Positions 3,154 to 62,337 of a DNA stretch of 64,000 nucleotides are shown here, piece after piece. This stretch comes from Amoebophrya sp. A120 (lineage: Eukaryota > Protista > Dinoflagellata). Numbering within the stretch: the stretch's first letter is position 1; each line of letters opens with the position of its first letter. Position numbers and translations under genes: made by a program. The stretch covers positions 8,686,449 through 8,750,448 of the forward strand of contig CAJINV010000005.1 of assembly GCA_905178155.1 (NCBI GenBank). Direction: 5' to 3'. Under the pieces are notes generated by a model. It ran no database searches, was not told the origin of the DNA, and saw nothing but the letters and a program-made list of their open reading frames with translations.

Positions 3154-3631
3154 TCAAATCCTGTCCGTTTTGTTGCCATTACTTCCAGATCCACTCCCCG
3201 CTCCGTCCGCCCGCTGTCTGCACCGACGGCAGCCCAATATGCATTGCAAAAGCATCGTACGCGTATTGCAGTCATGCATTACAAATTTTTTTCTTGACGT
3301 ATTACAAATTTTATTTTTCATGCTGAGGGAATTTGTAATGCACTTATACGAGTAGGAGTACGATACCTTTGCACAGGATACACAGCACGTCCACACAAAT
3401 CCGGTTCCGCAACTTGCCCCGCATCGTGGTAGACAAGTCCTCCTTGGTAGCTTGCCGGCGGAAGGTACTTTCCAGACTTGTGGAGCTGCTGCTGCACTGG
3501 CGCTCGAACTTGATCATGGAAGGCAATTTAGCGGAAAAATCCTCATCCGTAGGAAGCCGGGTGAGTCCCGGGCCGTGATCTCGTCCCCCGGGAACGATAC
3601 CCCCGAACGCGGGAGCACGGGCTTCGGGCAT
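3154..3631 (-). CDS. Small hypothetical protein, 2 exons, Cys-rich C-terminal part
   Basis: MPEARAP...RICVDVLC joins CRRCRQRADG...KTDRI* after removing element 3238-3380 plus 5 nt. Confidence 0.55.
3238..3380. mobile_element. TIR introner family A
   Basis: tatgcattgcaaaagcatcgtac...gtacgatacctttgcacaggata; DR degenerate. Confidence 0.85.
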
Positions 3632-5796
3632 TGTTTTTGTTTCTGTCTCTTACTATGATTTTTGTATGGTAGTACGGCCTGCGGGGCTGATGCTACTTTT
3701 AGTTTGTTTGTTTCTGTACCTACGGGGTATGAACCTTGGAGCCAGCGCTACATACTAGGGGCGCTCATCTGCTGTGGTTTTAATCATCTTTAAGATGATT
3801 ACTTAAAACTGCATTAAGAAACAGCTCTAACCCTCACACGCGTTTCTCCTTCGTCTCCCTCTCGCATCGCAAACGCATTTAGATGGCCACAGGGCAGGTC
3901 TCCTCAAAACTACAGGCGCGTCGACTTCTCTCGGAACTGAACAAGAAACGCAGAGCCAGAGCTACGACGGCCGAATAGACGCAGCTGCGTGCCCGATCGT
4001 TGCTATTAGCGGCAACAACGATCGCAAACGCGCGCGGCCTCATGATTGGCACTGCGTTCATTCCCGAACGAATTCAGTGTCATTCATCGCATGCAGGTTT
4101 GAAAACAGGTAAAATAAACCATAGCCATGCGCCTGGGCGCGGCGGCCGGGCAGAGGGCGATGGCCACATGAACTCTATGTCGATACCACGGGCCCGCGCA
4201 CCACATAAGTCGCCCCGATCGAAAGTGTTTGCTACGGCCCGAATCCGGCCAAAAGCGCCGCGCTCCTGGCCTTGCTTGCCTTGCCGAGGAGAACGAGGCC
4301 CAATCCTTCTCCCCGCCGCCAATCAAATCAGCCGGGTCGGTCGGGCGGCCACGCCGGCAAAAGTAAACCGCCCCGCGCCCGCGCGGGCGCGCGGGGACGG
4401 AGGCCAGCAAACATACATCGGTTGCCAGCGCCGCGGCGTGCCACCCCGGCCCCGAAATCGGGCCAGGCGGGGCCAGGGAGCAAATAAGATATAAAGAAGG
4501 GGCGCCGAGCCGGAGGCCGCGCCCCTGTGTAGCTGGCTTGGGGGGCAGTTCCGCGCTCTGGTGGGGGTTGTAGTTTGCTTGCGGCAAGGGCAGCATGTCT
4601 TGCAATCGGCTTCATTGGGGCGCGCCCGCTTCAAGTCCACCGCTTTGCCGAGGTCCGCCGCCACCCTGCCTTCCCAGGTCGGCCCCGCTTGCGGGCGTCG
4701 CCCCCCCGCCCCCGCGGGTCCATATGGCTGCCCCTCAACCGGGCCCAGAAACCCGACAACACACACCAACACCGCGCGCGCCCCCAGACCATTCCGCCCG
4801 CCCACGCGCAGAGCCCCCGAGCGATCTCGCGCGCGGGCGCCCGTCCCTGCCTCCGTCCGCGGGGCGCGCGGGCGGCGGCGTGCCCGCCGGCCGCCGGCGC
4901 TCGCTCGCTGCCTGGGTGCTTGGCGGCAAATCACCGCGCGGGTTGTTGCTTGTGTTGGGGCAGGGGCGCAAATCAACGGGCGGGGCTCTTGTTAACGTTA
5001 CGCGCCCCTTCTTCCCCGGCAAAACACAAGCGGGGCGGAGGTTGGCGCTCATTTTCGTCTTTTCCGTGACATCACTACCGGGCACCCCGACGGCGTCGCG
5101 CCGGTGATCTTCCTGGACGCCGGCGGGTCGTTCGGATGATGCTCCGCCATGGGCAGGCCCGCCCTGCCCCGCCAATACCCCGGCCGCGTCCTCTCTCTTC
5201 CGTCCCTTCGCACAACACCGGCGGCCGCTTTTTTTATAGAAGTTCTATTCAAGCGTAGCCAAAAGCACTCCGCTCGCAAAGCTCTCCTCCGATCACAAAA
5301 AGTTGCAAGCTCGGCTATAAACGTTGTCCACAACAAGCACCGTGGCCTGTTTCGTTCGCCACGAACACTTCCTCCACCACCAAGAGGACAAAAACCGGAA
5401 AAAAACAACCAAAACCAGATGATGAACGGCAAGCTCACTTTCTACCGCAGAGCTCTGTGCACGACGACAACAAAGCTGCCCGCTCTAGAAGATTTTTTAG
5501 GTTTCAGTTTCTGGGTTGTGATTGTCAGAAAGGTTTTGTACTATGTGTGACATCAACCACAAAAGTGGACCCGGGCTGTGCCATTGGAGGTCGTTCATCT
5601 GTCGCTTCAAAAAGTCGTTTCAAATTCAAATGCTGTACAAGACTCAGATCCCCTCAAAGGAGCCCACATCAGGACTTCTCGTAGGATCTTTGTATGTCCT
5701 AGTCCTAGTCCTTTGTTTTACTAAAGTCATCAACTACAACAAGTTTTACAGTGAAACTCGAAGGAGTGAACGTCCCATCACAGGCTTGGACAGCAT

Positions 5797-8700
5797 TCAC
5801 AGGTATTGGTATTCTAGCACCACAAATTTGATCACCGCCGCTGTACAATGAATAAACCCATCTTCCTCACCCTCCCCGTTCCTTCATTTCCTGTTGCGCC
5901 TGCTGCATGGCTTTCGCCGCGGCCTGGTTCGGTGGCAACGCGTTTTCCCCCGTGGAATATCCCGAGTAAAAACATCCCCACCCCATAGTCAAGTTGTCAA
6001 ATGATCTGCAACACAAATCCCCAAGTTTTGGCTGTCGAGCATGACAAGTTTGGGTTCGTAGTGTAAAATCCTGTGGTAGCTAGTGCAGCCGCATGACAAA
6101 TTGCCTACCTCATCCTGATTCCAGCACGACAAACTACCAGATAGCATTAGAAAGTGGCTGTCATGGGGCTCCGCATGAGAAACATTTTCAGCATGCAGAT
6201 TTGCATTACAACCATGGGGTGGGGAAGTCGAAGTTTCTACATAGGATATGGAAAACTCGTTGAACAGCTGCTTTATCCTCGTTTGCAGCTGCACTTTCGG
6301 ATCCACGGACATCTTCATGGCCTCTTCAAGTAACATATCCTGAGACAAAAACAGATTATACCCATCCATTTTTTGCATGACAAACACTAGACTTGCTGTA
6401 CGATTGGCATGACAAATTGGATGGGGATGGGTCTTTGTTTCTTGTGGATACAACAGCGCCTCCTCGTCCATGCTGTCTTTATTTGATGCTTTTGCTATCG
6501 AACCGGCGATATCCTGTGCAAAAGTATCGTGCTCGTATTGCGATCATGCATTACAAATTTTTTTCTGAAAGCAAATCCGCATTACAAAGTTCATTTCTCA
6601 TGCTGAGGAAATCTGTAAATGCATTTATACGAATACGATACTTTTGCAATTCATAGGCGGCTCCCGTTTGCGAAGGCGCAGACACGGAAGGTTGTATGTT
6701 TCCTCCCGCACCAGCACTACTGTTCGTAGTTGAAGAAGCTCCCGCCCCGGAAGAAGTTAGAGTAGTAGGTGCACCACCGCCACCTGGAGCTCCTCCGTGT
6801 TCACCACCTTCCATCGCGGCTAGCTTTTCTTGCTGCGATTTCGACCGGACCAAGTGTCCGTTGAAAAACCCCTCCGGTTCGGCCTGCTTCAACAAATTTT
6901 CCTCTGGCGGTAAGCTTTTGTCGGTTTTCTTCCCGCCGGAGAATGCGGTTAAGTCCGTGAGAATGTGAAAATCTTCCAGCATTGTCTGCATCGCTATGGC
7001 CATCTCCGGGTCGACGTACTGCATCCCGAGACTGTACCATCGTGAGAAAAAAGCGCTTCACTGTATAGGATTTTCAATCGCTAAAACAAGTTTGTTTGCA
7101 TATACAAGTTGTTTACACACGACATCAAAGAGAAAGAAAATTTGCCATGCGCGCTACTTCCTGTAAGGAAACAACGTTGAAACAAGAAACCCCAATCTCT
7201 TGCATGTGTAGCAAGACAAACACAAATGCAATCTATGCATCACAAGTTTAAAATAAATACAGTGGAACTACAGTTTTTTCTATCAATATGTAGTCGATCA
7301 CATCTGCTCTGGAAGACTGCGTTCCCACGTTGATGATCAGCTTCTGCTATCCTTTGCAGAAGTATCGTACTCGTATAAATGCATTACAAATTTCCTCAAC
7401 AGCATGAGTAGAAATAAAATTTGTAATGCTGATTTACCTTAGGGAAAAGATTTGTATATGCATGATTGCAATACGAGTACGACACTTTTGCCCAGGATAT
7501 TTGCTTCGGCGGGATCACGTCAAAAGTCACTGCAGAGACCCGGGATCCGCACATTCAGTATGCATTGCGCATATGTCCTCTGAGTCTGGAAGGATGGAAC
7601 TTGTCATGCTAAATTACTATCTATTATATTCATGCGAAAAAAGAGGTCTACAGAGGGTCGAAGGGAGGTGGCCGAGAGGTCAAAAAGAGGTCGACAGAGG
7701 TCAAAAAGAGGTCGACAGAGGTGGAGAGGTGGTGCAGGAGGTCAATCGAGAGGGTGGCCGAGAGGTGGCGCGGGTATAGCCCGCCGAAGGGCTCGCCCTA
7801 AAGCCGCGCCTATGGGGGACGGAGGTGGCCGAGAGGGTCCCGAGAGGGTAAGCGAGAGGTGGACAGAGGTGCCGAGAGGTTGCGCGAATAAGGGCGAACC
7901 TCTCGCGCACCCTCCTGGCCACCTCTCGGCCACCTCTGTAGACCTCTATCTGTGAGTATAGCCGAACTATTAGCAACACCTCTCGGGAGAGGTCAAAAAG
8001 AGGGTCTGCGAGAGGGTCAGAACAACCCGAATCCCCCCGGCACGCGGTCGATTTTCTTTGGGCCTTTTCATGGCGTTGACCCGCACCCTTTCGCGCTACC
8101 CTCCCGCTCTACCCTCTCGCGCTACCCTCTCGCGCCACCCTCTCGCGCCAGCCTCTCGCGCGACCCTCTCGCGCTACCCTCTGGCGCCAGCGATTTCCGC
8201 CGGGAAGCAAATTAAAAGGGGGCGGGTGGGTGATCAAAAAAAGGCAGCGCGGCTTCCGTTCTGCTTCCTTCGGCATCTATGTCGAGCCGGCTTCGTTTCG
8301 CCCCCAAGCTTCGCTGCAGCTGCTCCCTGCGCATAGCGCCTGAAGGCGCGGGAAGCGCGCAGTAGGCCCAGCGGGTTGAGATGGCGCAAACCGGCGCCAG
8401 TATTTCCTTCGACCTACCTTGACGCCGTGCGCAAACAAAGCTGTGGCGCTGTAGCCCGATCCGCAAATAGTCCTGCCCCACCACAACAGCCACTCGCCCC
8501 GGCGTCAGCCGGGGCATGGCTGGTCAGAATCATGCAAAATTCTGTGTTGCATGATTACCGAAAGCTGTGGTCCACTTTCGACCAAGTTGCGAGGGAGTTT
8601 CTCATGCAGAGCTGGCATGATGGAGACCTCACAGGATCTGTCATGCTAGGTTCTGCATTCCAGATCACATGGGTCATGCAAAATGTGCACGACAAGTCTT

Positions 8701-11700
8701 GCAATCTTCCAGAGGACCCAGAGGACATATTTGCAGTTGATATTCCGAGAGATTCCGTCATGTCGTACTGGACGCCGCAGGCTTTGTCGTCACTGTTATT
8801 TTCCATCGCCATGATGTATCCCGCGTCGCCGTCGCGGATAAAAATCGTTTGAAAATCCTTGTACTGCATCTGCGTCATCTGACACGTCAAAGCGGTTTTC
8901 TTCGCGTTGGATTCCCCGATCCCGCCCGAATTGTCGTCCTCCAGAATTGCCCAAATCGCCTGGTTGATCAGCTCCCAACTGGATTTCTGCTTCCGCAGCT
9001 TTGGCCCGGAAATCTTGTGGTAGCATATCAAATGCAAATATGTCTGAGTCTGGGAGACTGCAAGGTTTGTGATGCACGGATAGCATGGCTCTCAACTCTG
9101 TCATGCACGCCGCCCAAAACCTGCCACATTTCTCTGTCATGCAGAAACGCAGTTTGTCATGCAGAGACGCATCACTATTTATAGCAACTCCGAAACTTGT
9201 CATGCTTGGCTGTCAATGAAGGCGCCCACATGATTCGCCAAACAGCATAACAAGTTTCCAGACCCAGACATATTTGCATTTGATATTGCAGTGGATCACG
9301 ACATTCCCCTGTCTTGGGAACGCGTTTTCTTCCCTCAATAACGAAAAAGACAGCGGCACGACGAGGTAGGTGTAACCGCCCTCCAGTGTCGTGTAGATGG
9401 AGGTCTGGTCCTGTCTCGTCCGTTTCGCCCGCTGGACGAACTGCAGGATCTCATGAAAACTGCCGTCCGCCTTGGTATCCTTCATTTTCCGGAACACTAC
9501 AAACCCGATGTCCTGATTGGTCGATTTCGCGTTGATGCTCGCCTCCCGTTTCACGTGTCGCTCCTGCCAGATCGACAAGTCGATTTCTGTTGTTTGGTAC
9601 AAATCAAACTCGATAACCTCGCCCGGATCACCATTCTGAGCAAAAACGTTCCCAGCCCAAGGCTGTCATGCAGACTTGCAATTACAGGAGTCAATTTGCA
9701 ATGCGCATCCCCATCATGATGAGAGGCATTTGTTCCAGTCGTGTTTTGGCAACGTTTGTAATGCTGTAAACATGATAGGAAGACGGCTTTGCGATGCGGC
9801 TGCGCTTGTTAAATTGCACTACAATGCGGAGAGGAACTTGTCATGCGCGACTACCAAAACTTCTGGATTTGTGTTGCTAAGTTCGCAATCATTGACTCTT
9901 TCTAGGGTCGTGAGGACGCTTTTGCTCAGAATAACCGCCCGCGCTGGAAGTGAGCCAAACCCGCTCATCCGTTCGTAGCCAGTAGCTCGGGTGGACGCGA
10001 CAGACTTCCACCTGTCCGATATGAACTGCAAAAGTATCGTACTCGTATAATTGCATTACAAATCTCCTCAGCACGAGAAATAAAATCTGTAATGCTGATT
10101 TCTCTTCAGAACATGAACAAGATTTGTAATGCATGATTGCAATACGAGGACGATACTATTGCACAGGATATCCGAAGTATTTCCGCAAGTCTTCGAATTT
10201 CATCCAGAAAATGCTCATGTCGTCATGCATCTTCACGTTCGAGGTGTTCACAATCCCGAGCTCGAATTTCAGTTGGAACTATTGTGAGGAAAAATCTCCC
10301 CGCCCCATACCGAAAAGGAAATTTGTGATGCTGACTTGTGACCACAAATCAGCTTTGTCTTGTGTACAAGGCAAATGGCGCCTCCCATGTGGCGCATTGT
10401 CGTGCAGCCAGTCTGTCATGCGCTTTCGCGTATGGCAGATTCGTTTCTCATGCGCAGCTGCTAGCCGGATGCGTAGTACCCAAATAGGCTTAGAATATCC
10501 GTATTCCGGCAACAAGCTCTTGCTGCAATACAAGGTTCATTTGTGTACACAAATCCAGCAACGCAAATTGTCTTTTGAAAATGGGGTAAGGGGTTATTTC
10601 ACTTTGATAGAAACGGCTGTTTGTCCATCCACTCGCTACCGAAATCTCCCTTCCAGGTATCAAAAGGAAAAATCCCCCCTGCCCATATCGAAAAGCAGAT
10701 CTGTGATGCTGGACTTGTGTACACAAATCAGATTTGTCTTGGAGTGGAGGACTGCAGGCCCATACCATGCCAATGTAGAGAGGTTTTGGCCTAGGCGCTT
10801 AGCATGAGGAACGTCGATCCTGTAGGCCCAACAGCATTACAGATCCCCTGCATAATGTTAATGGGGCGGAGCCTATGCCGTTGCTTTCTTGCAAGACAGA
10901 CGCGATTTGTGGCCACAAATCAGCATCACAAATTCTCTGAGGCGTGGTTTATTTTCGATATAGGGAGGGGGGATTTTTCCGTACGATACCAGGTTTGCGG
11001 CGCCCGTTCCCCCCACGGATTCCGGATTTTGATCAGCCGGAAGGTTTGGTTGTCGTGGTTCAATTCCCGGACTTCCAACACTCCGTACGCGTGAGGGGAT
11101 TGTAACCCCTGGAGCACGACTTCTTCCCTCGATTTTTCCACCGCCTCGTGGCTGCAGGCTAAGCCCATGATATACCCCGCTTCGTAGTAGGAGAGCAACC
11201 GGTATGGGCCGCAAAAGTATCGTCCAACTCGCATATTGATATCATATTGCATGACAGATTGCTGCAATGTGTGTAGTCCACTTCGACTTTAGCATCAAAA
11301 ATCCTCTCTTTCACATCATTGCACAAAATTGTCATGCTATCAATACAAGTGGCGCAAAGCAATAAAAATTTTGCGATGCATAATCGGGTCCACATCACGT
11401 CGTTCTGAAGATTATCGTCCAAAGCGTCAACTTCGTCCTGATCGTCCTCCGGGGGTTGCTCCCCCCGGAATAAAGCTGCCATTTTCAGTTGCTGAATCTG
11501 GGTTCTTCTCTTCGCCCTGGCTTCCTTGACCGATTTCGGCTCGTACAAACGCATTGTCTCGACGGGGTAGCTGTAATTGTATTTTTTGCATAGGTATTAA
11601 AAGCCTAACGCTTCTGACCTCCTGTCCCTGTGGGTTCTATGCATCACAAAACAATCTACAGTATGACACGTCGCATGATAAAAGAAAGCACACAAGAAAA

Positions 11701-14700
11701 ATGTCTATACCCTGTCAGCAGCCCCAGCGCTTCTCCGAACGTGCCGCTATTCAGCGCCGAGTAGCAGCCAAAGAGCTTCGCCGCGGCTTTTTCAATTAAC
11801 GGGACCCACAACTGTCTCCTCCGTGACTGCAAGTAGCTCAACTCCCCGCCCTGTGCGAAGTAAATGCTCCCACCGTCAATTTTCCCATCCCACACTTTGC
11901 TGCACGGGAAGAGGTCGTCCAGCAAAATGCCCCGCCACTGCCCGGCGATATCCACAAGAAATTTCCCGTACATGTACAAATGCGGTCCCTGCATGACAAA
12001 ACTTGGCTTCGATCCTAGTTTAGCATGACACGTTTTACGGTCCAAATTGGTGAAATTTGTGATGCATGTTGTACATGTAGGGGAAATTTGTATTGCATAG
12101 GCGAAGCAGAGTTGCACCAAGTAGGCGCCGTGCTTGTTGTGGTCTTTTTTGTTGAAAAAAAGTTTCTCGACCAAATATGGTTTCAGAGCGACGACGGACA
12201 AGGCTCCAGCGAACCAGCAGTTTCCTATCGCACCCTGCACGACGTCCTCCGCTCGGGCTTCTTCGCGTATCACCTTCCACGGCTGCCCTAACGTGTTCCC
12301 GTGCTCGTCGCGGAGGAAGCCGGCGCAAAGTCGGGACTTCAGCGAGTTGTCGGTGATGGTCGGATACAGCATGTCCGTGATTGGGTCGCTGCTGCTCGAG
12401 CATTATCCTGTGCAAAAGTATTGTACTCGGATATTGAATGCTATTCTTGCATGACAGATCTACTTTTTTTACCTTAATTTGCAAGACAAATTCAAGGCTC
12501 TTCTTTTGAAGAAGTTTGTCATGCGCTTTATGCAGCTAGCACGTTACTCTTACTTTTGCAATGCATAAACACGGTCGCAGCCACGCGCTCGGGCGGAAGT
12601 GGAACTTCGTTACGGAAACATTCGTCGGCTTCGCTCGGCAGTGCCCGCTATGCATTGCAAAAGTATCGTATTAGTATAAACTGCATTACAAATGTCCTCA
12701 GCATTAGAAATGAAATTTGTAATGCGGATTTGTCTTCAGAAAAATATTTGTAATGCATGACAGCGATTACTACGAGTTGTACGATACTTTTGCACAGGAT
12801 ACCCGCACAGGATGCTGTCCAGCTTCGCTTGGAGACTTATCGCCTCCTGCTGCGTGGTATGCATTGCAAATATTTCTGGGTCTGGACGCGAACTTCTATC
12901 TAATGCGTATCTTGCATTCCTGGAAAATCTGTGTTGCATGAGCAGCAAATGAGCGGCTTTCCTTGTTATGCAAAAAGGCGATTTGTCATGCGCGTCACGA
13001 CGCAGCAGAAAGCGTTTCGAAAGTTTGTCATGCTTGGCTGCCATTGCAAGCGTTCTTGCAGTCATGCGCAATTCAGCATCACAGGTTTCTAGACCCAGAC
13101 ACATTTGGACTGCATACGTTGCTGGTTTTTTAAACAGCGGCGGCAGCGGGTTTCGTTTGTGGCAGTTGAAGCACTCCCAGGTTTTCCCGTCTTCGGGGTC
13201 TGCGTAGAGAATTTTGTCGGAGGCTACGAATTGGTAGTCGATGTAGGGCATCCTGTGCAAAAGTATCGCACTCGTAGTCGTTGTATTGCAGTCATGCATT
13301 GCAAATTTTTTTCTGAAGCTAAATCCGCACTAGAAATTTTATTTCTCATGCTGAGGAAATTTGTATATGCATTTATACGAGTACCATACTTTTGCAATGC
13401 ATATAGGGCTCCCCGAGCTGGGCCTGGATCGCGTTCACCTCGTCGACTTGCGTTTATGCATCGCAAATATGTCTGGGTCTGGCAACTTGTGTTGCTGTGG
13501 CTGATAGATACCTGCATTACAGACTGGCTGCTTCGATACGGCACAACAGCATGAGAGGTTTACCTCAGCTCTTTGCGGATTCATTCGCATGTAGCATTAC
13601 AAACTGCCATCCAGCACGACAAGAAAACTGACCAATCGCATTCCTGCATTACACATCTTGTCGTCCTTAAAGTCCCGCATCACAAATCCAGACCCATACA
13701 CATTTGGATGTGCAATGCATAGCTTCGGGTCTATCACGATGTTCTCGTCCGTGAACCGCACAAATTCCACGTCCTGCCGGTCTTTCAACCCCATCGGATC
13801 GTCGTCCGCGTCATCTTCGCCGTTTCTTTCCCCAGTAGTTGTTTTCTGCTTTTTATGTACCTGTCCGTCCCCCTCTCCCATCGACATGGCGAGCGCGGCG
13901 ATCAGCTCTTCGTCCTCCTCATTGTGGGACATGGAAACGTCTAAATCGTTGTTCGCTGTTCCTGTTTATGCATTGCAAAAGTATCGTACTCGTATAAATG
14001 CATGACAAATTCCCTCCGCATGAGAAATAAAATCTGTAATGAGAATTCACCTTGAGCAAAGCATTTGTAATGCATGACTGTAATACGAGTACGATACTTT
14101 TGCACAGGATACTGTTCCACCATTGGCGCCACTACTGCTTGCTGATCCTCCTCCTGTTGTGTTTGTATTTGCTATGAGAGTGCAGAACTCCACCCCCTCA
14201 TGGTCCTCATCGGTGCTATGCCTATGGCATGAAGATGAACAGCATCACAACCACCAACACACGTGGAGCCTGTGCATGACAAGTTCACACGCCGAGAGTA
14301 CTGAGTGTTAGTACTGTTGCGGCTTCCGGATTTTGTATATGCAAATAATGCCACAAGGCACCAACTGGATTTTTTTGAGTTTTGCATTACAAATGGGCGG
14401 CAATTGTGCACTTTCATATTTGCGTTGTCCCCTCTCGCGGATTTCATCGGTTCATCCTCCGCATCATCGTCCATGGAGAGCAGAATACACTCGATGAGCT
14501 CATTCGCCTCTTGCAAAGCCGCCGTGTCATTCTCCGAATAGATCCAAATCCCCTCATCCTTCCGGAATTTCAGAGACAGCAGCAAAGCGTGGCCCGGGAC
14601 TGGGATCTCGTTGAGCCAGGTTTTGTTTTTGATGATACTATCGTTGTTCACGGTGCCGGCAAGGAGTTTGGTGAGGGCTTGGAACGTTTTTTTCGGCCTC

Positions 14701-14735
14701 GGGGTTTCCTGGATCGATTCGATAAGGTCCTCCAT
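5797..14735 (-). CDS. CAPN15: SOL/calpain-15-like cysteine protease (PUB-like N-terminus, UIM, CxxC/CxxC Zn finger, CysPc, SOL-type C-terminal domain, second UIM); ~21 introns
   Basis: Spliced exons give VVQGAIGNCWFAGALS (catalytic C), WVPLIEKAAAKLFGCYSAL, GLQSPHAYGVLEVR (H), LIKIRNPWGE (N), DEELIAALAMSM and DEEALLEEAMKMS (UIM-like), WECFNC...CGHC. Symbol reflects family resemblance, not proven orthology; the 3' end is approximate. Confidence 0.88.
5958..6248. mobile_element. TIR introner (singleton type)
   Basis: tatcccgagtaaaaac...tttctacataggata, perfect DR tggaa; splicing gives LFNEFS|TGENALPPNQAAAKA. Confidence 0.8.
6336..6450. mobile_element. Short TIR introner
   Basis: tatcctgagacaaa...tttcttgtggata, DR (t/c)aaca; interrupts the UIM-like DEEALL|EEAMKMS. 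Confidence 0.8.
6510..6655. mobile_element. TIR introner family A
   Basis: tatcctgtgcaaaagtatcg...cgatacttttgcaattcata, DR ggcg(a/g). Confidence 0.9.
7038..7288. mobile_element. Degenerate TIR introner (family F-like)
   Basis: catcgtgagaaaaaa...ttttttctatcaata, DR tgta(c/g); splicing gives DVIDY|SLGMQYVD. Confidence 0.7.
7348..7499. mobile_element. TIR introner family A
   Basis: tatcctttgcagaagtatcg...cacttttgcccaggata, DR t(c/t)tgc. Confidence 0.88.
7559..8742. mobile_element. TIR introner family B carrying a nested element
   Basis: Left arm tatgcattgcgcatatgtcctctgagtctggaag; right arm cttccagaggacccagaggacatatttgcagttgata; host is ~274 bp without the insert. Confidence 0.85.
7614..8523 (+). 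mobile_element. Non-autonomous Helitron-like element nested in an introner
   Basis: a|ttactatcta start; end hairpin gccccggcgtcagccggggc + atgg + ctgg|t; no TSD; internal agaggt/cctctcg minisatellites. Confidence 0.7.
9026..9285. mobile_element. TIR introner family B
   Basis: tatcaaatgcaaatatgtctgagtctgg...ccagacccagacatatttgcatttgata, DR t(a/t)gca. Confidence 0.9.
9632..9933. mobile_element. TIR introner (singleton type)
   Basis: cattctgagcaaaaacgttcc...ggacgcttttgctcagaata; splicing gives SSAGG|DPGEVIEFDL. Confidence 0.75.
10020..10170. mobile_element. TIR introner family A
   Basis: tatgaactgcaaaagtatcg...gcacaggata, perfect DR tccga. Confidence 0.92.
10280..10609. mobile_element. TIR introner family C
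   Basis: tattgtgaggaaaaatctccccgcccc...ggggttatttcactttgata, DR g(g/a)aac. Confidence 0.8.
10658..10988. mobile_element. TIR introner family C
   Basis: tatcaaaaggaaaaatccccc...gggggatttttccgtacgata, perfect DR ccagg; splicing gives RNPWGERAPQTW|KGDFGSEW. Confidence 0.92.
11203..11382. mobile_element. Degenerate TIR introner family A
   Basis: tatgggccgcaaaagtatcg...ttttgcgatgcata, DR a(c/t)cgg; splicing gives VMWTR|LLSYYEAGY. Confidence 0.8.
11571..11710 (-). other. Canonical GT-AG intron retaining introner hallmarks
   Basis: Minus strand gtatag...ttacag; splicing gives LLTG|YPVETMRL; contains gcatcacaaa. Confidence 0.7.
11949..12099. mobile_element. TIR introner family G
   Basis: tatccacaagaaatttcccgtacatgtac...gtacatgtaggggaaatttgtattgcata, perfect DR ggcga; splicing gives VQLCFA|GQWRGILLDDLFP. 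Confidence 0.92.
12404..12567. mobile_element. Degenerate TIR introner family A
   Basis: tatcctgtgcaaaagta...tacttttgcaatgcata; DR degenerate. Confidence 0.8.
12649..12801. mobile_element. TIR introner family A
   Basis: Perfect DR cccgc; splicing gives SILCG|HCRAK, completing a CxxC. Confidence 0.92.
12858..13116. mobile_element. TIR introner family B
   Basis: tatgcattgcaaatatttctgggtctgg...ctagacccagacacatttggactgcata, DR cgt(g/t)g. Confidence 0.85.
13249..13403. mobile_element. TIR introner family A
   Basis: catcctgtgcaaaagtatcg...tacttttgcaatgcata, perfect DR taggg. Confidence 0.9.
13455..13721. mobile_element. Degenerate TIR introner family B
   Basis: tatgcatcgcaaatatgtctgggtctgg...ccagacccatacacatttggatgtgcaatgcata. 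Confidence 0.8.
13967..14111. mobile_element. TIR introner family A
   Basis: tatgcattgcaaaagtatcgtactcgta...tacgagtacgatacttttgcacaggata, perfect DR ctgtt. Confidence 0.93.
14173..14418. mobile_element. TIR introner family H
   Basis: tatgagagtgca...tgcactttcata, perfect DR tttgc. Confidence 0.85.
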
Positions 14736-35179: not shown

Positions 35180-35283
35180 GAATGATGGTGATACTAACAA
35201 CCGAATCTGTTTATGCGAAGAATAGTCATAGATACTGAAGAATCATTTCCATGCAAGTAGTATCAGGACGTGAAACAGGCGAT

Positions 35284-44510: not shown

Positions 44511-44571
44511 TGCTGAAAAAACATTCAACATCTTTTCGGTGTTGTCGTAACTATAACCACCCGCGCAGGGA

Positions 44572-50496: not shown

Positions 50497-52020
50497 TCAA
50501 GACAGCTTCAACAGCAACGTTACTATCCCTTGGTCCCTCACACCATAGTCATTCAACAATTTCTCATCCTCCAGCTGCCTTCCCGCGCACAACAACCGCT
50601 GATCACTTTTCGCGATCCTCTCCACCGCTTCAATTCTTTCCTTCAAATTCACAACCGTCGTGGTCGCTGGGTTCAAATTTTCCACGGGAATTTTCTTCCC
50701 GGTGAGCGTCTGGACGACCACGGTGATGGAGCCGGAGAACTGCGGGGATGACGGGTTATGCTTGCTTCCTTTGTTCTTCCCCTTGTTCGTCCCTCCTGGA
50801 GGCGGCGGGGAGTTAATATTTACCGCCGGGTTTGGTGGTGGCACAGCGGTACCGGGAGGGGGGAAGTTCACGGTAGGGGCAGGCTGCGCTGTTGTTGGCC
50901 CGCCAGGCGCAGAGTTTCTGTTTACAGGAACACCAAGTACGATTTGAGAGGAGCTCGGTCCCGCTGCAGGGTCGTGCTGGTCGGCGGATTTGTAGCTCTT
51001 CGTTGGGGGCGGACTGGGATGTTTACGTTTAGATACGTGGTAGAAGGCAATTGATATTGTTCTTCATCACAGGACGACACTGTGGGACTGACGCTAGCAT
51101 GACCATGAAATGAGACTTCAACAAAAAATCGTGTTTGTTCTTGCGGATAGCTATGAGAAGATCAAGATAGGTGAAAGACAAAGATGGATTGCACTTTATG
51201 CATGACAAACAGCCACGTCCTATACCTGTCCACGCTCCCGGTCGAGCTTCTCCTCCCGTGGTTAAATCCTCCTCCCGGATAGGCGTTTTCCCCTCCCCCG
51301 GCCGCCGCCACCCCCGGGTGCCGTATCGGTCGAACTTTGTAGGGCGGTGTTTTCGTGTTGGTTTGCGTGTTCAGGGTGAAATCAATCGTGTAGGTTTGTC
51401 CCCTGGCTCTTATGGCGTTCTCAAACGTTACATTCTCAACTGTTACATGCTTTGTAATGCAAAATGAGCATCAACGTCCACATGGTGAAGCTACTGCGCA
51501 TGACAAATTTTGAAACGGCTAAACACCATGGAAATCTGTGCCGAATTTGTAATGCAAGAGTTGCAAGATCCGGCCTTTCCCTGTTGCCATTCTTGCGTCA
51601 CAAATTCACGCAACAGTTGAGAATGTAACAATTGAGAATCCCATAGCTCTCAGCTCCACCGTCGGTTTCCCGGCATCGTAAGCTTCCTGAATAACCTGGT
51701 GCTCGCGGTCACGGTTTTGAAAGGAAATAAAAACAACGCACGGGGGGGTTTGGAAGTAATTTCAAGACTGTGGCGGCTCAAGAAGCCCGCGCCCTCTGCA
51801 GGTTTTCCGGTGAGCCTTCTGCACAACCCACTACATACATTTCAGCATCGGCGATGGTTGTTGTGTTCTTGCTGATCATTACCTTTTGGTTTCATTCGTG
51901 ACCACCAGCAACGCAACCATCGATCATGCGTAGTTTTTATCAATACCATAATGAGAATTCCTTCCACTGTCCGGCAAGTTTCACCTGCCATCGCCCTCGT
52001 GCACCGCTAGGAGAGGCCAT
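50497..52020 (-). CDS. WWE-domain protein with a Pro-rich linker and a C-terminal ubiquitin-like domain (no diGly)
   Basis: MASPSGARGRWQVKLAGQWKEFS…VIQEAYDAGKPTVELRA|RGQTYTIDFTLNTQTNTKT..KVRPIR (WWE-like); ITVVVQTLTGKKI…QRLLCAGRQLEDEKLLNDYGV…LLLKLS* (UBL). Confidence 0.78.
51411..51645. mobile_element. TIR introner family D
   Basis: Family D TIRs, perfect DR gctct. Confidence 0.92.
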
Positions 52021-53912: not shown

Positions 53913-56288
53913 CTACAACGAGTCCTCGTCCTCCGCCTTGCACGGCAGCACCCTCCGAATCATCGCCAACAACCCAAATCTTCCAGTAGTCCCCGCGACT
54001 TGTTTGGCGTTATCATCCCCATCACCACCAGACTTTTGTTCCCCGTCGGTAGTAGAAAACACACTCGCATTTTTGCTCCGATCATCATCATTATTTCCCT
54101 TAAGGACTTCCTCTTCCGCAGCCAATTCCTGGCACTTGTTCTCCAAAAACGCCACTAATTCGTCTTTGAACTTCAATTCCTCGCTCTGCATCTTCAATTC
54201 CTCCCGTTGGTAGTTGATGATGTTGTCCTTCTCGAAAATCTCATTCTCTATCAAATGCAAAACAATGTCTGGGTCTGGAAACTTGTGATGCTAGTTGAGA
54301 AAGACGAGGACGCCTCAATTATCTGGCAAGCATGGCAAGTTCTGGAGGCGCTATAGTCTCGGTTTTTCCGCATGACAAAGTGAGCTTCTGCATAACAGAA
54401 AAGTACGGCTACTTTTGGGTAATGTGCATGACAGACTTGAGAGTGATGTCAGACAAGCATGACAAACAAGTTCGATTCTTCCAGACCCAGACATATTTAT
54501 TGCATTTGATATTCTCCAACAGTTCACATTTCTCCTTCCACCGCAGAACTTCGGTCAGGTTGTCTTCAGAGGAGTAGACAGCCGGGTCGCGTGAGTTCTG
54601 CTGCAGCAGTTCTACTTGGGGTCCTTCAGAATCAGATTCATCGTCGTCCTGCGCCTCATCTTTCGACTTCGATTTCGAACAAGAAGTTGTAGTGATGACG
54701 ACCTTGCTCGGGGTAGAACTTATCCACGGGAAATTTCCCGTAGGTACACGTGGAAATGCGGTCTCTGCATGAAAAAACTTGGCTCCGATGCTAGTTTAGC
54801 ATGATAAGTTTTACACTCCCACTCCGAAATGGTGAAATTTGTGATGCATCTTGTACATGTAGGGGAAATTTGTATTGCATAGAACTCAAGGATGAGCTAC
54901 TAGAACTCGCCATCATTGTCCCCGTGCTGCTTTTGGTCCAGATGAATTTCGTTTCGAAGATGTCCACCACCGGCTGCCAGGATTCGAAAGTGTCAATGTC
55001 GACTCCGGTTTAATATCCAAGGAAAAAACATCGCACTCATACTGATTTTTGCAGATATGCATGACAAAGCTGCTTTTCTCGAGGTAAACCAGGATGACAA
55101 ACTCCATTTTCATGCTGTCAACTACGAATTTGTGATGCAATGTGCACTAAATTATTGTAGAGTGCGACACTTTTGCAATGCATACGGTTTCCTCCTCCTC
55201 CGGAATAATTACCGCCAGATTGACCAAGTGATCGTCCTCCAGTGCCGGGGAGACGAACTTGCCGTGAAAGTGGTTCTCCTCCTCCTCCTGTTGGTCTTGG
55301 TCTTGCGGGGGCAGGATGGTGTCCAGCATGGTTTTGTTGTTCTCATCCTCTTGCTCCACCATCGCATGTAACTCTTGCGACATTTGCTCCTTGCCCACAA
55401 TTTCCTTTTCGTCCACCTGCAAATCCGGCTTCTCCACCACGGACAAGTGCTTCGCTTCTCCCCCAGAGAGTTTGTCATGCACGGCGACGAGCCCTGATTC
55501 ACCAGATTCAGCCGCAGCTGCAACTAAAACTAGTCCCGCTTGTTCCGCGGCTTGTTCAGGTTGATTCCCCGGCGATGTTGGGGTTGGCAAACCCGATGAA
55601 CCATTTCCAACAGCAACAGCGGGATCGATCGTCTCGACAGGACTAAAGGGTTGGAAAGACGTCGCCGTCGTGGCCATTTCGACGGGAGAAGATGACTGCG
55701 AGTTCATCTTCGAAGGTACGCTAGAAAAACTGGCCTGCCGTTTCACGTTCGGGTAGAAAACTGTGGCGCCGTCGATAATGACCGGAGAAGTCGTCTTCGG
55801 GGGCTGGAGGTATGATTTAAGGTTGTGTTGATAGATTTTGATTTGTCGGCAGTTGGACATGATTCGAATGTGTCATGCAAGGAAACACAACGCATCCAGT
55901 CTATTTCAGCATATATTGCGGGCACCAAATAAAAAAAAAAGCATTTTCAATTGTCGTCTACGTCTGCTGTAAGTACCAAATCCTTCCCGGCCGGTCCGTA
56001 GAAGTCATCACCTCCACTTTTTCCACCTAAACCCCGCACCCGCTCTCTCGCGGCCTTCGGTTGGACGTCAAGCTGGTAGAAGTTTCGCTCCGCGTCGAAG
56101 CTGAGAACCTTCCCCGTGATCCATTTCTTGTGCGTTTTGCTTTGGTATTCGACGGTAGTGCCGCGGGGGAAGATGGGAGGGCAGTTGCCGTGTGCTACAC
56201 CTGGCACCGCTGGCTTGATGTTGTCATCTTCCTCGTCGACCTTTGTCGGAACGATGACGGGACGGATTGTAGTGCTGGTCACGGGCAT
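53913..56288 (-). CDS. Hypothetical protein with an N-terminal Tudor/SH3-like segment and a C-terminal coiled coil
   Basis: FPRGTTVEYQSKTHKKWITGKVLSFDAERNFYQLDV; acidic linker; last exon coiled coil ending AMIRRVLPCKAEDEDSL*. Confidence 0.6.
54249..54511. mobile_element. TIR introner family B
   Basis: Family B TIRs, perfect DR ttctc. Confidence 0.92.
54721..54881. mobile_element. TIR introner family G
   Basis: Paralogue of the 11949 copy, perfect DR gaact. Confidence 0.92.
55014..55184. mobile_element. Degenerate TIR introner family A
   Basis: tatccaaggaaaaaacatcgcactc...gagtgcgacacttttgcaatgcata; cggtt repeated nearby. Confidence 0.75.
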
Positions 56289-58340: not shown

Positions 58341-59627
58341 TCACTTGCAGCTGACCGTGTCCGACAACACCTTGACAAAATGGTCGAAGATGGATTTCCG
58401 TTTCATCTCCAAAAACTTCTGTTTCAAGTCCCCCAGCTCCGCCTTCGTTTCCTCCAACTCCTGTTTCACCAAATCGTAATCCTCCTTGGAATATGAACTG
58501 CAAAAGCTGCATCGCACTCGTAGTAATCGCAGATATGCATTACAAATTTTATTGTAAAGGTAAATCCGCATTACAAATTCCATTCTTCATGCGGAGGAAA
58601 TTTGCCATGCGATTTATACTAAGTACGATACTTTTGCAGAGGATATGGAATACACCGGTCTGCTACTAGCGTAGTTCACGCTCAAATTCTGCTGGTTCAG
58701 GGAGAATATGAATTGCAAAAGTCTCGCACTCGTACTGGTTGCAGTATAGCATGACAAATGCAACTCGAGTATCTGAATCAGCATTACAAATTGCATCTCC
58801 CTTCTGCAAAAATTTGTGATGCTACCTGTACTAGTAAATGCGATTTCCTGTTGCAATGCATACAGAAGTAGCTCGCCCCGCTGGAAGAAGCAGAGCTGGC
58901 TTTGGACTCGGAGTGTATCCTTTGCAAAAACGTCCACACCCCAGATTTACGATGGGAATTTGGCAACACAAATCCCGACGCTTTGGGAGTCACGCAAGAC
59001 AAGTTGCAGTCCTTTGGGTGGTGCAGGGTAGCAAGATGGAGCGCCAGTTTATCCTGTTTCTGTTTACAGCATCACAAGTTCCACGACGCGACTGAGAATG
59101 CCTGTCATGGGGATCATGCACGTCGCAAATGTTCCTGTCTTTGCAAATCCGCATCACAATTCCGGGGAGGAGGTGGACACGTTTTTACACAGGGTAGACC
59201 GGGAGGATTGTTCCAGTATCGTGGTTGATGTGGATTCGGCGCTAGCCGCGGTTGCGTTTTGTAGTCCGGCGAGTACGGTAGTCCAGAAGGATGAAGAAGA
59301 TTCCTGGTCGGCGATGTTCTGGGAGAGTTTTGAGTTTTAATTTTATGTAGCAAGAGTGGCTGCACACAATGTTTAAATATTTGCAAAGGAGTAGCCGTGG
59401 CTCCGAAAATCTTTCATGCATGGCTGGCAGAAGGATATTAACAAAACAGAGCTCCTGCTGCATCCACGAATCCTTATATCGATTAAACTTTGTGCATTTA
59501 CATGTATGTGATCTAGTACAGCAGATTTCCCCGAGCCAGTCTCAGCCTTCGGCGCGATGACCTCCTCAGACGGCAGCATCATGTTTCCGAAGGCCTTCTT
59601 ACTCGGGCTCTCGAGCTGTGCCGGCAT
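58341..59627 (-). CDS. Small coiled-coil protein ending FVKVLSDTVSCK*
   Basis: ATG at 59627; exons separated by elements 58916, 58707 and 58492. Confidence 0.6.
58492..58645. mobile_element. TIR introner family A
   Basis: Family A TIRs, perfect DR tggaa. Confidence 0.9.
58707..58862. mobile_element. TIR introner family A
   Basis: tatgaattgcaaaagtctcgcac...ttgcaatgcata, DR (g/c)agaa. Confidence 0.85.
58916..59196. mobile_element. Degenerate TIR introner (possibly related to 5958-6248)
   Basis: tatcctttgcaaaaacgtccac...gtggacacgtttttacacagggta. Confidence 0.7.
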
Positions 59628-61702
59628 TGTTTTATTTTGCAGAAACAGCTGCTACTGACCGGATTCAGTTCGTCCTCGCACTGTAACTCGATTCTGATGG
59701 ACACAAATAAAAGTCAAAAGAAGCTACTTCGTCAAACAACCGAGCTTGCTGGTCCTACTCCGCAGAAGCGGGAAGCCTGATACGGGCGCTCAGCCACTCA
59801 ATTCTTCGGAATTTTCGAGCGAACAGAAGCGCACAAGCCAGATATTAGGTTTTGGATCAGGGTTCCTGATACAGCATTTTCGTCCCGCGCTTGCTACCAA
59901 AAGGACGCACAAGACGAGTCTTCGAGTGCTCTACTTGCCCAGACATGGTCAGGCCGGAAATCTACTACGCGATACGGAGCGCGCAGAAATGGGGGCCCAA
60001 CTCTTCTAGAACGCGACGTCCCCTGGTGGCTGAAAGAAAACACGCAGTACTGCATGAAAGGCAAGCGCCGGTCGGAGGGTGCTTTGCGTAACGGGTACCC
60101 CCGGGCCCCCGCAGCTTTGGTGACATCGCGTCGCCACAATCGGGTCGGCCTACGTGCCTGCCAACCAACTTGCGGGGGCGGTGCAATTGCCCACGCGATG
60201 CGACCGTGCAGCAGGGGCTGGCCCACTCACTTACAGACATGGGCGGGCCACAAGCCTGCCGGCCGCCTGGGCCGAAAGGCAGGGGCCCCGGCCCACGTAT
60301 AAGTAGCCAGAACCAGGCGGGGGCCGCAGCACATGGGCCAAAGGCCCCGGCCGACTGGGCCGGCCCGGGGCGTTCCGCGGCCTGGCCCGCCACAACCAAC
60401 GAGAAGAGAACAAAAGGAAGCGAGGCCGCGCGCGAACCGGCTGCAGTGCCTCCATCTCGCGAGACTCCTGCACCCCGCACGGCGTTAGCCTGAGGGGCGG
60501 CCGCGATGGGCGCCATAAATTATTGCCACTGCCGTCGACCAGGAGACGGGAGGCAACGCGCCACACACCCACTGCCGCGGGCGGCCCGGCACGACCCGGC
60601 CGGGCTCCTCGGGGGCGCCGCCGAGACGAGGCGGGGCCACCGCCCTCCCTCTGGGGAAGCGCGGCCCACCTGTGCGCGCAGCGCGCGGGCCGGCCCCGGA
60701 GCAGGGTGATCGCTCTCGCCGACACTCGGCCGCACTGCTTGGGTACCTATTCGCGGCACTTTGAAAACGTTTCCTCGCTCACTTCATCAACGCTCCCTCG
60801 GAGATCGCCACAAAAAGAACAAAACACTCCGAAGCGGCACACTTGATGCGCCGGCGCGCGGCTCAGGTCCAACTAACAGGAGAGAATTTCTGCCACCGGG
60901 GCCGACATCAATTCAACAATAAGAATAAGCACTTCATCTCGCCAGTCTCGATGCATATGGCTGTTCAAAATCAAAATGAAAGTCGAAACTGAAATTACAG
61001 GTAAACGTGCACTGCCAAAGATTTTCTCAACTCTTGTCCGAGTGCTTGCTTCAACAAACTCATTCAAAAGAAAAAGCTCTATGATGTGAAAGAAAAAGTT
61101 CTTTTCCTCTGCCAAGGACGACTCGTCCGGCGATAAAGTCAAATTGATAGCTCTAAGGAGGAGGAAAATTTGGAAGAGTCAACTAAATCGACGAGTACTT
61201 TATTCTCTGGAAGATTTTATGCATGCTCAAGCTAGAGTTGGACGAAAATAAAAATGGTTTCAATCGATAGTCTCTTACTCTTTTGCAATTGATAAAGTTT
61301 GCTAGTAGATGGGTGGGTTTAATGAGATAAAAGAAACATTGCGTCTTTCGTCTAACAGTATCACAGGCACTTGTTCAGGACGAGCATGAGGAAACAAGAA
61401 ACAAAAATCGCAGAGAATTCTTCTAGTTCATTTTGGATGTAAGATAGGTAAACTTGTCATAAGTTTTGGTAAAATCTAACTTGCGCTTCAAGATCGAGCA
61501 TCTATTGGCTAGAAGAATGCAATGGTGAACAAAGAAAGAACGAGTCCGTGATCAGTAAGCTCAAGACAACTAAAAAATGGAAACGAATGCTGAACGAATT
61601 TGAAGTTGAACTGAAACATATTCAAGTAAAATAAAACCCTCCTTTTGCTTCTTCCTCTCCCTCCCCACTGATCTCCACCACCACGACGGCTTCATTCCGC
61701 CC

Positions 61703-62337
61703 TTACTTGCACGTGGTCATCTCCCGCATCATCGTCAAAATCTTCACAAACACGTTTTCCGACTTCAATTCCGCGATTTCCTTCTTTAACTGCCAAATCT
61801 CCGCCTCGTTGGATTTCAACATCAGGCATCCCCTGAAAATATTTATACCACTTGTTTCAGCTAATTTTGTCATGCAAGCCATGGAAGGACTTCGGTTTTT
61901 GTCATGCTTATAACAGAAAGTTGTCGGAGTGGTACATAATCTTCAGGGCATATCACCTTCTGATTTTCCACCTCCCCGGACTGTTTTTCCAACTCGCTCT
62001 TCTTCAAATCCAGTTCCGCTTTCAACGCGTGAAACTCCGCCAGCGTCGGGGTTTTCTTGCTGGTGGCAGAAGAAGAATTTTTCGTGAGGGAGAGGTTCTT
62101 GGAAGAGGAGGAGTTGGTCGCTTCTTTGTTCTCATTGTCCTTTTTGGAGCTGAACAACCCGGCCCACCAGCTGGTCGTGGGCTCCGCCTGCTGCTCGACG
62201 ACTTGCTGTTGCTGTTCCGGCATTTTTGGTTTGGTTTGGGGGTGTGTCCGAACGAAGTTCGTGGCGTTTGATGTGGGCGGCCACTCAAGGAGGTTTTGTC
62301 GACTAGATGAAGGACAAGCGGGTACTATTGGAAGCAA
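61703..62337 (-). CDS. Small coiled-coil protein ending FVKILTMMREMTTCK*
   Basis: MPEQQQQ…(ATG 62223; ORF open further upstream)…ENQKV|MLKSNEAEIWQLKKEIAELKSENVFVKIL…. Confidence 0.62.
61827..61952. mobile_element. Short TIR introner
   Basis: catcccctgaaaatatttatacca...tggtacataatcttcagggcata; removal restores the frame. Confidence 0.75.

Follow-up and report, generated by a model that had tools for sequence, protein, structure and literature searches.

Evidence for a fixed cut register, a UA donor signal and a common internal motif in the TAT...ATA introners of Amoebophrya sp. A120

Amoebophrya disposes of tens of thousands of introns that lack GT-AG borders, by a mechanism that a 2024 review, like Farhat et al. 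2021 (PMC7789003) before it, called an open question. The same question is raised by the 64,000-nucleotide stretch of Amoebophrya sp. A120 analysed here (the window), for which a preliminary description had proposed that about 64 TAT...ATA elements from many families are all removed by one rule based on their terminal structure. Two window exons, that of calpain among them, match proteins labelled as Amoebophrya sp. A120 at 100% identity; the window belongs to the published A120 genome itself, and inverted-repeat/direct-repeat introners are, as the preliminary description stated, known from this genus. Farhat et al. 2021 (PMC7789003) described A120 introners whose inverted repeats consist of TAT, seven less-conserved nucleotides and at least three A, with direct repeats of 3-5 nt (5 bp in the legend of Fig. 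S19); more than 60% of A120 introns were non-canonical, with many families and a hairpin, U1 was undetected, and such introns were validated through RNA-seq junctions. The window elements resemble these introners in their ends (TAT, seven variable nucleotides and AAA in the end logo), in the direct repeat at the exon/intron border, here of 5 bp, and in forming repeated families that are absent from transcripts at non-GT-AG sites. Judged from their sequence, the window elements are the published introners, and the system itself is not new. What we did not find in print is the fixed cut register, the one-sided UA requirement and the motif common to the families; the main text of Farhat et al. 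2021 (PMC7789003) yielded no mention of a phased internal motif.

Census of the elements, their ends and their families

A strict scan for TAT...ATA ends, terminal inverted repeats (TIRs) and a 5-bp repeat with at most one mismatch returned 46 pairs, of which one was a spurious cross-pairing; ten Markov-shuffled sequences gave 0-1 pairs apiece. Together with looser scans and hand curation, the strict scan gave a list of 64 elements between positions 3238 and 61952 (Table 1), matching the number first proposed; three measure 1049-1563 bp and the others 115-481 bp. On the plus strand, 55 have TAT..ATA ends, 4 CAT..ATA, 3 TAT..GTA, 1 TGT..ATA and 1 TAA..ATA. The flanking 5-mers form perfect repeats at 38 elements and carry one mismatch at 18, two at 6, three at 1 and five at 1, and their composition is arbitrary, as had been claimed. 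Equally sound was the statement that most junctions are not GT...AG: 63 of the 64 cannot be slid to such borders, the exception lying at 18683 on the gene (minus) strand, and four more can be slid to GC/GA-AG. Reading frames are continuous after removal of element plus 5 nt. Short, non-coding and present in many copies, with TIRs and target-site duplications (TSDs) of fixed length, the elements have the features of MITEs or non-autonomous TIR transposons, and the evidence supports their being transposon-derived introns with a 5-bp target duplication.

The sample was extended to 346 elements with 282 from other loci of the same organism (557 kb), which the search pattern skewed to family B and whose strand was inferred (56 of 56 window calls were right, and 183 of 190 neighbours were concordant). 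Among 274 strong locus elements the 5-bp repeat is perfect in 82% and other lengths reach at most 11%, the repeat match being part of the detection score. BLAST clustering at 50% coverage divided 62 elements into 7 multi-copy clusters and 8 singletons; with hand assignment there are 8 families and 4 singletons. The preliminary description had spoken of at least eight unrelated families: eight families without full-length homology were indeed recovered, but they have a common end consensus and an internal 11-bp motif.

Table 1. Features of the window. Skip, nucleotides skipped in the transcript-like contig; cut, registers that the site allows.
Positions	Strand	Feature	Family	Remarks
3238..3380		introner	A	
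5870..14735	-	calpain gene (A120 protein P0001)		20 introners and one GT-AG intron
5958..6248		introner	singleton	
6336..6450		introner	C	short, hand-assigned; coding in annotation P0001, absent from A25 ortholog
6510..6655		introner	A	
7038..7288		degenerate introner	C	CAT..ATA
7348..7499		introner	A	
7559..8742		introner	B	~0.9 kb non-coding cargo
9026..9285		introner	B	RNA skip 265, cut 0/-1
9632..9933		introner	singleton	CAT..ATA; RNA skip 307, cut 0/-1
10020..10170		introner	A	RNA skip 156
10280..10609		introner	F	RNA skip 335, cut 0/-1
10658..10988		introner	F	RNA skip 336 (QTW/KGD)
11203..11382		divergent introner	A	RNA skip 185, cut +1/0/-1 (MWTR/LLSY)
11571..11710	-	canonical GT-AG intron		starts GTAT; skipped in same contig as introners
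11949..12099		introner	G	RNA skip 156
12404..12567		introner	A	RNA skip 169, cut 0/-1
12649..12801		introner	A	RNA skip 158 (CG/HC)
12858..13116		introner	B	RNA skip 264, cut 0 to -3
13249..13403		introner	A	CAT..ATA; RNA skip 160
13455..13721		divergent introner	B	RNA skip 272, cut 0 to -2
13967..14111		introner	A	RNA skip 150
14173..14418		introner	I	RNA skip 251
16318..16624		introner	H	
16874..17023		introner	A	
18410..18618		introner	C	
18683..18949		introner	B	sole GT-AG one, at cut -1
19921..20071		introner	A	
20157..20306		introner	A	
20509..22071		introner	A	~1.4 kb cargo (96-bp tandem array)
26245..26499		introner	B	
26540..26804		introner	B	
27750..28074		introner	F	
28597..28768		divergent introner	A	
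29005..29262		introner	B	flanking 5-mers mismatched in register
29728..30776		introner	D	~0.8 kb cargo
30857..31092		introner	D	one TGT end
32623..32886		introner	B	TAT..GTA
35691..35900		introner	C	
37046..37262		introner	I	
37451..37591		introner	A	
38063..38325		introner	B	
38377..38585		introner	C	
38703..38924		introner	C	
38985..39197		introner	C	
39239..39387		introner	A	
40251..40503		introner	B	
40555..40708		introner	A	
40858..41096		introner	D	
41199..41456		introner	B	
44249..44510		element	B	outside gene models built in analysis
44572..45052		element	H	173-bp insert; outside gene models built in analysis
45719..45863		introner	A	
45943..46212		introner	B	3 repeat mismatches
46752..46910		introner	A	TAT..GTA
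47197..47349		introner	A	
48088..48337		introner	B	perfect 30-bp TIR (PKGA/KYDC)
48386..48535		introner	A	
51411..51645		introner	D	
54249..54511		introner	B	
54721..54881		introner	G	
55011..55184		divergent introner	A	left end uncertain by 3 nt
58492..58645		introner	A	
58707..58862		introner	A	annotated P0019 needs cut -1 or further
58916..59196		introner	singleton	TAT..GTA
61827..61952		introner	singleton	CAT..ATA

Exact removal, the cut register and the donor

The exons of the calpain gene match Pfam Peptidase_C2. As had been predicted for mapped reads, exactly element plus 5 nt is skipped at 14 of 14 element joints among those listed for a transcript-like contig of 29 joints, a result that comes from one contig of a single run (X1) whose RNA status is a guess. 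The calpain joins named beforehand (QTW/KGD, CG/HC and MWTR/LLSY) are all among these exact skips, and PKGA/KYDC appears in the translation after element removal. The outcome feared at the outset, namely pseudogenes whose elements are kept in the transcript or spliced wrongly, is contradicted for the calpain gene by these skips and deserves practically no credence, given that the spliced calpain also aligns along its full length with the ortholog of strain A25; annotated P0001 does keep the in-frame element 6336 as coding, probably an annotation miss. It is also very improbable that a domesticated transposase excises the elements from DNA, as with ciliate IESs, leaving an element-free template for transcription. 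The guessed RNA status of X1 and a phased, strand-symmetric motif (described below), which would suit DNA-level recognition, are compatible with such excision, but the contig also lacks the GT-AG intron, the share of words from the unspliced stretch is 0.67-0.71 in runs X5/X6, RNA-seq junctions have validated such introns (PMC7789003), and conservation of the terminal T tracks transcription direction, with elements inserted both ways. In runs X1-X4 the word share is 0.35-0.36, matching the 0.34 expected from exons alone.

Copies with imperfect repeats, among them 9026 and 12858, narrowed down the cut position, a use that the preliminary description had envisaged. Seven imperfect repeats in RNA allow cuts 0 or -1 (four cases), +1 to -1, 0 to -2 and 0 to -3, and at two further sites cut 0 is excluded by annotated proteins: P0019 (site 58707) has S at a position where cut 0 would yield C, and for P0021, which has M-R-GGE, cut 0 would yield P and cut -5 would drop the M. 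The R of P0021 is found in 119 of 119 homologs among those listed, which were gathered by words that include this residue, and a solved relative has H there. Cut -1 is the only register that fits all nine informative sites. With high probability, a single fixed register applies, in which the intron is N-TAT...ATA-NNNN and four upstream-repeat bases and one downstream-repeat base are left, whereas Farhat et al. (PMC7789003) described where splicing falls with respect to the hairpin as variable or unknown, with no clear splicing signature. In this register, the GT(GC)-AG borders of U2-type introns are not those of A120 introners, GT-AG occurring in 1/64 window elements and 6/346 overall. The P0019 site turns GT at -1, and an aligner may favour GT.

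The donor of the -1 register has T at +2 in 346/346 elements and A at +3 in 345/346, agreeing with the U+2/purine+3 of U2-type introns. The 5' T is changed in none of the 346, against 13 changes of the mirror A at the 3' end (11 after two false ends are dropped); the AAA at positions 11-13 is symmetric, with 5'/3' changes of 24/25, 26/23 and 14/13, and the terminal T is conserved solely at the transcript 5' end. AG is not favoured at the 3' cut (23/346), nor is G at +1 enriched beyond base composition (107/346). All nine predominant A120 sites in Table S4 of Farhat et al. have T second, and A25 has TT-NN sites and inverted repeats starting TTA (PMC7789003), from which we infer that +2/+3 would be UA in both strains.

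Removal might instead be guided by structure and independent of the spliceosome, as proposed for euglenids, with the TIR hairpin holding the ends together while a nuclease and ligase act a set distance away from the stem. In most of the 10 elements folded, the two ends are predicted to pair; neither AG nor G+1 is required, U1 was not detected in A120, and euglenid introns show such geometry. However, changes in the TIR stem that keep a G-U pair (203) do not outnumber pair-breaking A-C changes (219), a comparison with little power against weak or redundant pairing; private changes number 78 (pair-keeping) versus 65 (pair-breaking; P=0.32); 5' TAC, which breaks the pair, occurs 10 times and 3' GTA, which keeps a wobble, twice; and the invariant base is the 5' T, at the position of U in GU. 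We therefore regard purely structural removal as possible but rather unlikely: the invariant 5' T, together with undetectable selection on RNA pairing, points to a sequence-read N-U-A donor. The idea that one rule removes element and one repeat length in every family tested stood, but its proposed basis in terminal structure was not supported. The further claim that the code differs from the standard U2 code is right in that GT-AG is not used; since the invariant T at +2 resembles the U of a GU donor, we infer a code that is related to the U2-type one but relaxed. U2, U4, U5 and U6 snRNAs and most spliceosomal proteins have been reported from A120, with U1 not detected. The balance leans towards a U2-type spliceosome without a normal U1 as the catalyst, which would read U+2/A+3 as a relaxed GU-A donor, with the acceptor set by distance from the hairpin end and not by AG.

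The shared motif and the spread of the elements

Sites of the form GCA(T)NACAAA are common to all families, strand-symmetric and often 31-33 bp apart, which corresponds to three turns of the DNA helix. The motif is present in 64/64 window elements, on which the matrix was trained, and in 279/282 locus elements; the spacing of same-direction sites is 31-33 bp in 44/138 window pairs and 223/467 locus pairs, and spacings of 31-32 bp occur in 11 of 12 families. Conservation is equal in both orientations, and the rate of change is lower at motif sites (2.9%) than at TIR sites (5.0%). This lower rate would also fit a host splicing signal (enhancer- or branch-like) carried on both strands for splicing in either orientation, and the motif is indeed present in 8/14 predicted internal GT-AG introns of the window, while six hits in ordinary introns of the loci all have the same orientation. 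Nevertheless, we think such a signal improbable: the motif is in only 5/36 predicted locus GT-AG introns without introner homology (shuffle mean 0.95, maximum 4), the two orientations are equally conserved, older copies show no extra conservation and the spacing equals three DNA turns. The sites are better explained, in our judgement, as putative DNA-binding sites of a common transposase. The autonomous TAT...ATA element with a transposase that the preliminary description had suggested looking for was not found, there being no transposase in the window or in the 557 kb of loci, and Farhat et al. found none in A120 (PMC7789003).

We favour a model in which the short non-coding inverted-repeat elements, lying in exons between 5-bp repeats, would have been spread by one integrase-type transposase, and in which their absence, with exactly five flanking bases, from transcript-like contigs would reflect an altered spliceosome whose cuts fall one base ahead of TAT and four bases past ATA. 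The fullest reading, to which we give slightly less than an even chance, is that a single clan is moved by one such transposase, which binds GCA(T)NACAAA sites at a spacing of three helical turns, and that all members of the clan are spliced by a fixed N/TA donor and an acceptor four bases past ATA, without AG or G+1, by a U1-less spliceosome keeping only U+2/A+3. If so, any exon position and either orientation would be tolerated, and the same UA would serve A25. The 'highly variable splice sites' would reduce to a single simple rule; register, UA and motif would name the bases to mutate and the places to seek branch points; the fixed register would correct gene models; and the motif, TA ends and 5-bp duplication would offer a handle for tracing the missing transposase.

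Comparison with known systems

Gozashti et al. 2025 (PMC12130899) split A120 introners over several element classes, with automated TSD calls of 2-5 nt, and list '5-bp TSD, TA/TA termini' for A120 family 38. In contrast, the 12 window families have the same end type and motif and all carry 5-bp repeats, family 38 being compared by description only. Ginger/Tdd integrase-type transposons (Bao et al. 2010, PMC2836005) have TIRs and integrase-like geometry, as here, and TDD-4/5 make 5-bp duplications, the same length as in A120. Ginger elements have TGTNR ends and mostly 4-bp duplications, whereas A120 elements end in TAT, with a TGT-type terminus at one end in 3/346; TGTNR termini thus do not place them in Ginger.

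Nonconventional introns of euglenids (PMC3935182; PMC11282704) are similar in their non-GT-AG borders, TIR hairpin, junction repeats and proposed MITE origin. They differ in a conserved CA/TG at +4,+5/-7,-6 and in circular excised RNA; A120 introners have U+2/A+3 and a stem that starts at +2 and -5, and instead of the CA/TG pair they carry T,(C/G) at +4,+5 and A,T at -7,-6. Like the A120 elements, introns of Fritillaria borealis and algal introners (PMC11282704, PMC9860276) are MITE-derived, with TIRs and TSDs, and an adapted U2 spliceosome has been reported for Fritillaria (PMC11282704). Those introns, however, have fixed border dinucleotides (AG-AC/AG-AT, or GY-AG supplied by the element or the TSD), whereas the first base and the last four bases of the A120 introns are arbitrary target sequence.

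Inventory and identity of the introners

A strict scan of the window for TAT...ATA pairs with terminal inverted repeats (TIRs) and a 5-bp flanking repeat returned 46 pairs, compared with at most one pair in any of ten Markov shuffles, and looser scans followed by curation identified 64 elements (16.9 kb in total). Exact TAT...ATA ends were present in 55 of the 64; the 5-bp repeats were perfect in 38 and carried one mismatch in 18. These results bear out the preliminary description of TAT...ATA elements between 5-bp repeats, as well as its claim that most junctions cannot be slid to GT...AG: all genes modelled in the window lie on the minus strand, and on this strand sliding reached GT-AG only for the element at 18683. 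A frameshifting GT-AG option at 7064-7259 was discarded, since the element there spans 7038-7288. The elements formed eight families and four singletons (four members were placed by hand), and both insertion orientations were present. Other features of the window and of a locus in a second assembly are listed in the table.

A calpain exon (Pfam Peptidase_C2) shared 100% identity with a protein labelled Amoebophrya sp. A120, and its ortholog in strain A25 showed 74% identity; a second gene in the window likewise matched an A120 protein at 100%. The accessible part of Farhat 2021 (PMC7789003) reports for A120 more than 60% non-canonical introns, introner inverted repeats that start with TAT and run to AAA, and direct repeats of 3-5 nt (5 bp in the legend of Fig. 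S19), and the portion of Gozashti 2025 available to us (PMC12130899) tabulates an integrase-like ORF for A120 family 38, which it labels 'Ginger, 5-bp TSD, TA/TA termini'. Because the two papers describe the system in this genome, the link first drawn to known Amoebophrya introners is correct, and the finding as originally stated is already known. No report of a fixed cut register, one-sided UA conservation or a phased motif was found in the literature searched or in the main text of PMC7789003; part of these results may already be in print, for example in the sequence logos and Figs S19-S25 of that paper or in the A120 table of PMC12130899. What the analysis offers for this known oddity is a sharper, directly testable rule.

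Features of the window and of one additional locus
Coordinates	Feature	Reading
2455-2682	Exact 115-bp tandem duplication adjoining an N gap	Probably an assembly artefact
6336-6450	In-frame 120-nt introner, present as 40 residues in the public model of P0001 (annotated A120 calpain), absent from the A25 ortholog	Likely an annotation miss
7559-8742, 20509-22071, 29728-30776	GC-rich cargo of 0.8-1.4 kb with tandem arrays (13, 92 and 96 bp units); TIRs and 5-bp repeats still flank each	Cargo-bearing elements
21975-22032, 29907-29968	Similar cargo sequences	
29005-29262	Family B, TATA-rich site; flanking 5-mers mismatched in register, yet frame kept after element+5 removal	
33250-35180	53-bp exon piece three times (33250, 34153, 35127), flanking GC-rich sequence that contains an inverted repeat (33835-33947)	Insertion or duplication unlike introners
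44249-45052	Two intact elements that fall in none of the gene models of this analysis	UTR or intergenic
47822-48003	Degenerate TIR element, flanking repeat unmatched; excluded from every count	Probable old introner, a 65th element
50500-51063, minus strand	ORF	End presumably resembles a ubiquitin-like stretch
L036:3398-7233 (second assembly)	A120 gene P0021, UDP-GlcNAc 4,6-dehydratase (PseB/FlaA1-like), in an introner-dense locus; named relatives among those listed are bacterial or metagenomic	Possibly a transferred bacterial gene, colonised by introners

Removal from transcripts and the cut register

Transcript-like contigs were compared over 8760-20560, and joints elsewhere were assessed from reading frames and two annotated proteins. 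In sequencing run X1, 15 of the 29 joints in this stretch were displayed, all from one 4053-nt contig. Fourteen of these joints were introners, each skipping the element plus 5 nt, in agreement with the earlier claim that an element and one repeat copy are removed; the fifteenth was a GT-AG intron. Because this ordinary intron is also missing, the contig behaves as spliced mRNA (the RNA status of the run being presumed), and excision of the elements at the DNA level appears unlikely. The word share of runs X1-X4 against the stretch was 0.35-0.36, where exons alone predict 0.34. It is similarly unlikely that the elements are retained in pseudogenes, given that removal of element+5 restored the coding sequence exactly at all 14 joints, and the spliced calpain could be aligned to its A25 ortholog.

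The spliced calpain agreed with P0001 at offsets 0 and -1 and disagreed at -2 or beyond (0 being a cut at the first T of the element, and -1 one base upstream). Imperfect repeats, which the preliminary description had proposed for fixing the cut, narrowed the choice: seven such sites in the contig permit cuts at 0 or -1 (four cases), from +1 to -1, from 0 to -2, and from 0 to -3. At the element at 58707, the annotated protein P0019 carries Ser, where a cut at 0 would encode Cys, and at an element in locus L036, P0021 reads M-R-GGE, where a cut at 0 would give Pro. Arg occupied the latter site in 119 of the 119 homologs listed, which had been selected on shared words; in a solved relative the residue is His. 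Only -1 fits all nine sites. The intron therefore, with high probability, starts one base before TAT, at the final base of the upstream repeat, and runs through ATA to the fourth base of the downstream repeat; we stop short of certainty because the two sites excluding a cut at 0 are annotation, not reads. At five of the seven window sites with a mismatch at repeat position 5, the alternatives were synonymous, so that protein cannot set the register there. The joint at 11571-11710 was dropped as proof of the -1 cut since it is an ordinary GT-AG intron, and hence an analogy only.

The -1 register agrees with Table S4 of PMC7789003, in which T is second in all nine predominant A120 sites. A25 sites start with TT and its inverted repeats with TTA, according to the available part of the same paper, suggesting that intron positions +2/+3 are UA in both strains. 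Among predicted ordinary introns of the loci, GTAT was the commonest start (18/36), under a model that favoured A at +3 and not T at +4.

Conservation at the 5' end and the proposed mechanism

An element-pattern search of one other assembly yielded 134 loci (557 kb) with 399 distinct elements; a locus exon 100% identical to an A120 protein indicates that these loci are from the same organism and not from independent species. Of the locus elements with strong TIRs (n=274), 82% had a perfect 5-bp repeat; no other repeat length was perfect in more than 11%. A codon model, correct in 56 of 56 calls in the window, assigned a strand to 282 locus elements, and the sense statistics leave out the 117 of 399 that received no call.

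The 5' T was unchanged in 346 of 346 elements from the window and the loci combined, whereas its 3' mirror had changed 13 times (P=0.0002), or 11 times once two false ends were dropped. AAA at positions 11-13 was symmetric between the ends, and neither an AG bias or gain at the 3' cut (23/346) nor a G bias or gain at +1 was seen among these elements. Although the TIRs fold back in predicted structures, selection for RNA pairing was not detected, either in all stem differences (203 keeping G-U pairing vs 219 breaking it) or in private changes (78 vs 65). Detectable selection thus acts on the 5' sequence and not on pairing, which argues against the removal rule based on terminal structure that had been put forward at the outset. 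TAC occurred 10 times at the 5' end and GTA twice at the 3' end (P about 0.04-0.08); the A that lies seven bases upstream of the 3' cut (A-7) may be under constraint and is a candidate branch base.

An integrase-type transposase would insert the elements with a 5-bp stagger. The A120 spliceosome retains U2, U5 and U6, with U1 undetected, in the accessible part of PMC7789003. Such a spliceosome would cut out N-TAT...ATA-NNNN, read U+2/A+3 and place the acceptor by distance, a reading that we favour by a modest degree. The main rival, structure-guided removal outside the spliceosome as described for euglenid nonconventional introns in the portions available of PMC3935182 and PMC11282704, seems to us a distinctly less probable account.

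A motif shared among families

The autonomous TAT...ATA element anticipated in the preliminary description did not emerge, as neither it nor a transposase was found in the window or in the 557 kb of loci; the part of PMC7789003 available likewise reports no transposase found in A120. Six long TIR-bounded stretches in the loci were rejected as candidates, being chance pairs of separate elements or lacking a long ORF. Two scans of viral contigs and an Rfam search of the window gave no matches.

The families, initially called unrelated, are indeed separable but have one motif in common, GCA(T)NACAAA. With a matrix trained on window elements, 212 of 241 hits in the window fell within elements (12.5 per kb), whereas predicted coding regions in the loci contained 0.16 hits per kb; the motif was present in 279 of 282 locus elements. 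It occurred in 8/14 predicted ordinary introns of the window vs 5/36 in the loci, and the latter fraction led us to reject it as a mark of every intron or a general splice signal. Of the same-direction pairs, 44 of 138 in the window and 223 of 467 in the loci had a spacing of 31-33 bp; a spacing of 31-32 bp was found in 11 of 12 window families, and the outermost copy usually lay 31-47 bp from an element end. Motif sites changed at 2.9% vs 5.0% for TIR sites, equally in both motif orientations; tighter conservation in older copies was looked for and not seen. The spacing of three helical turns, together with the strand symmetry, suggests a DNA-binding protein, most simply one transposase serving all families via the motif. 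Multi-site ends combined with 5-bp duplications are features of Mu and Tn7.
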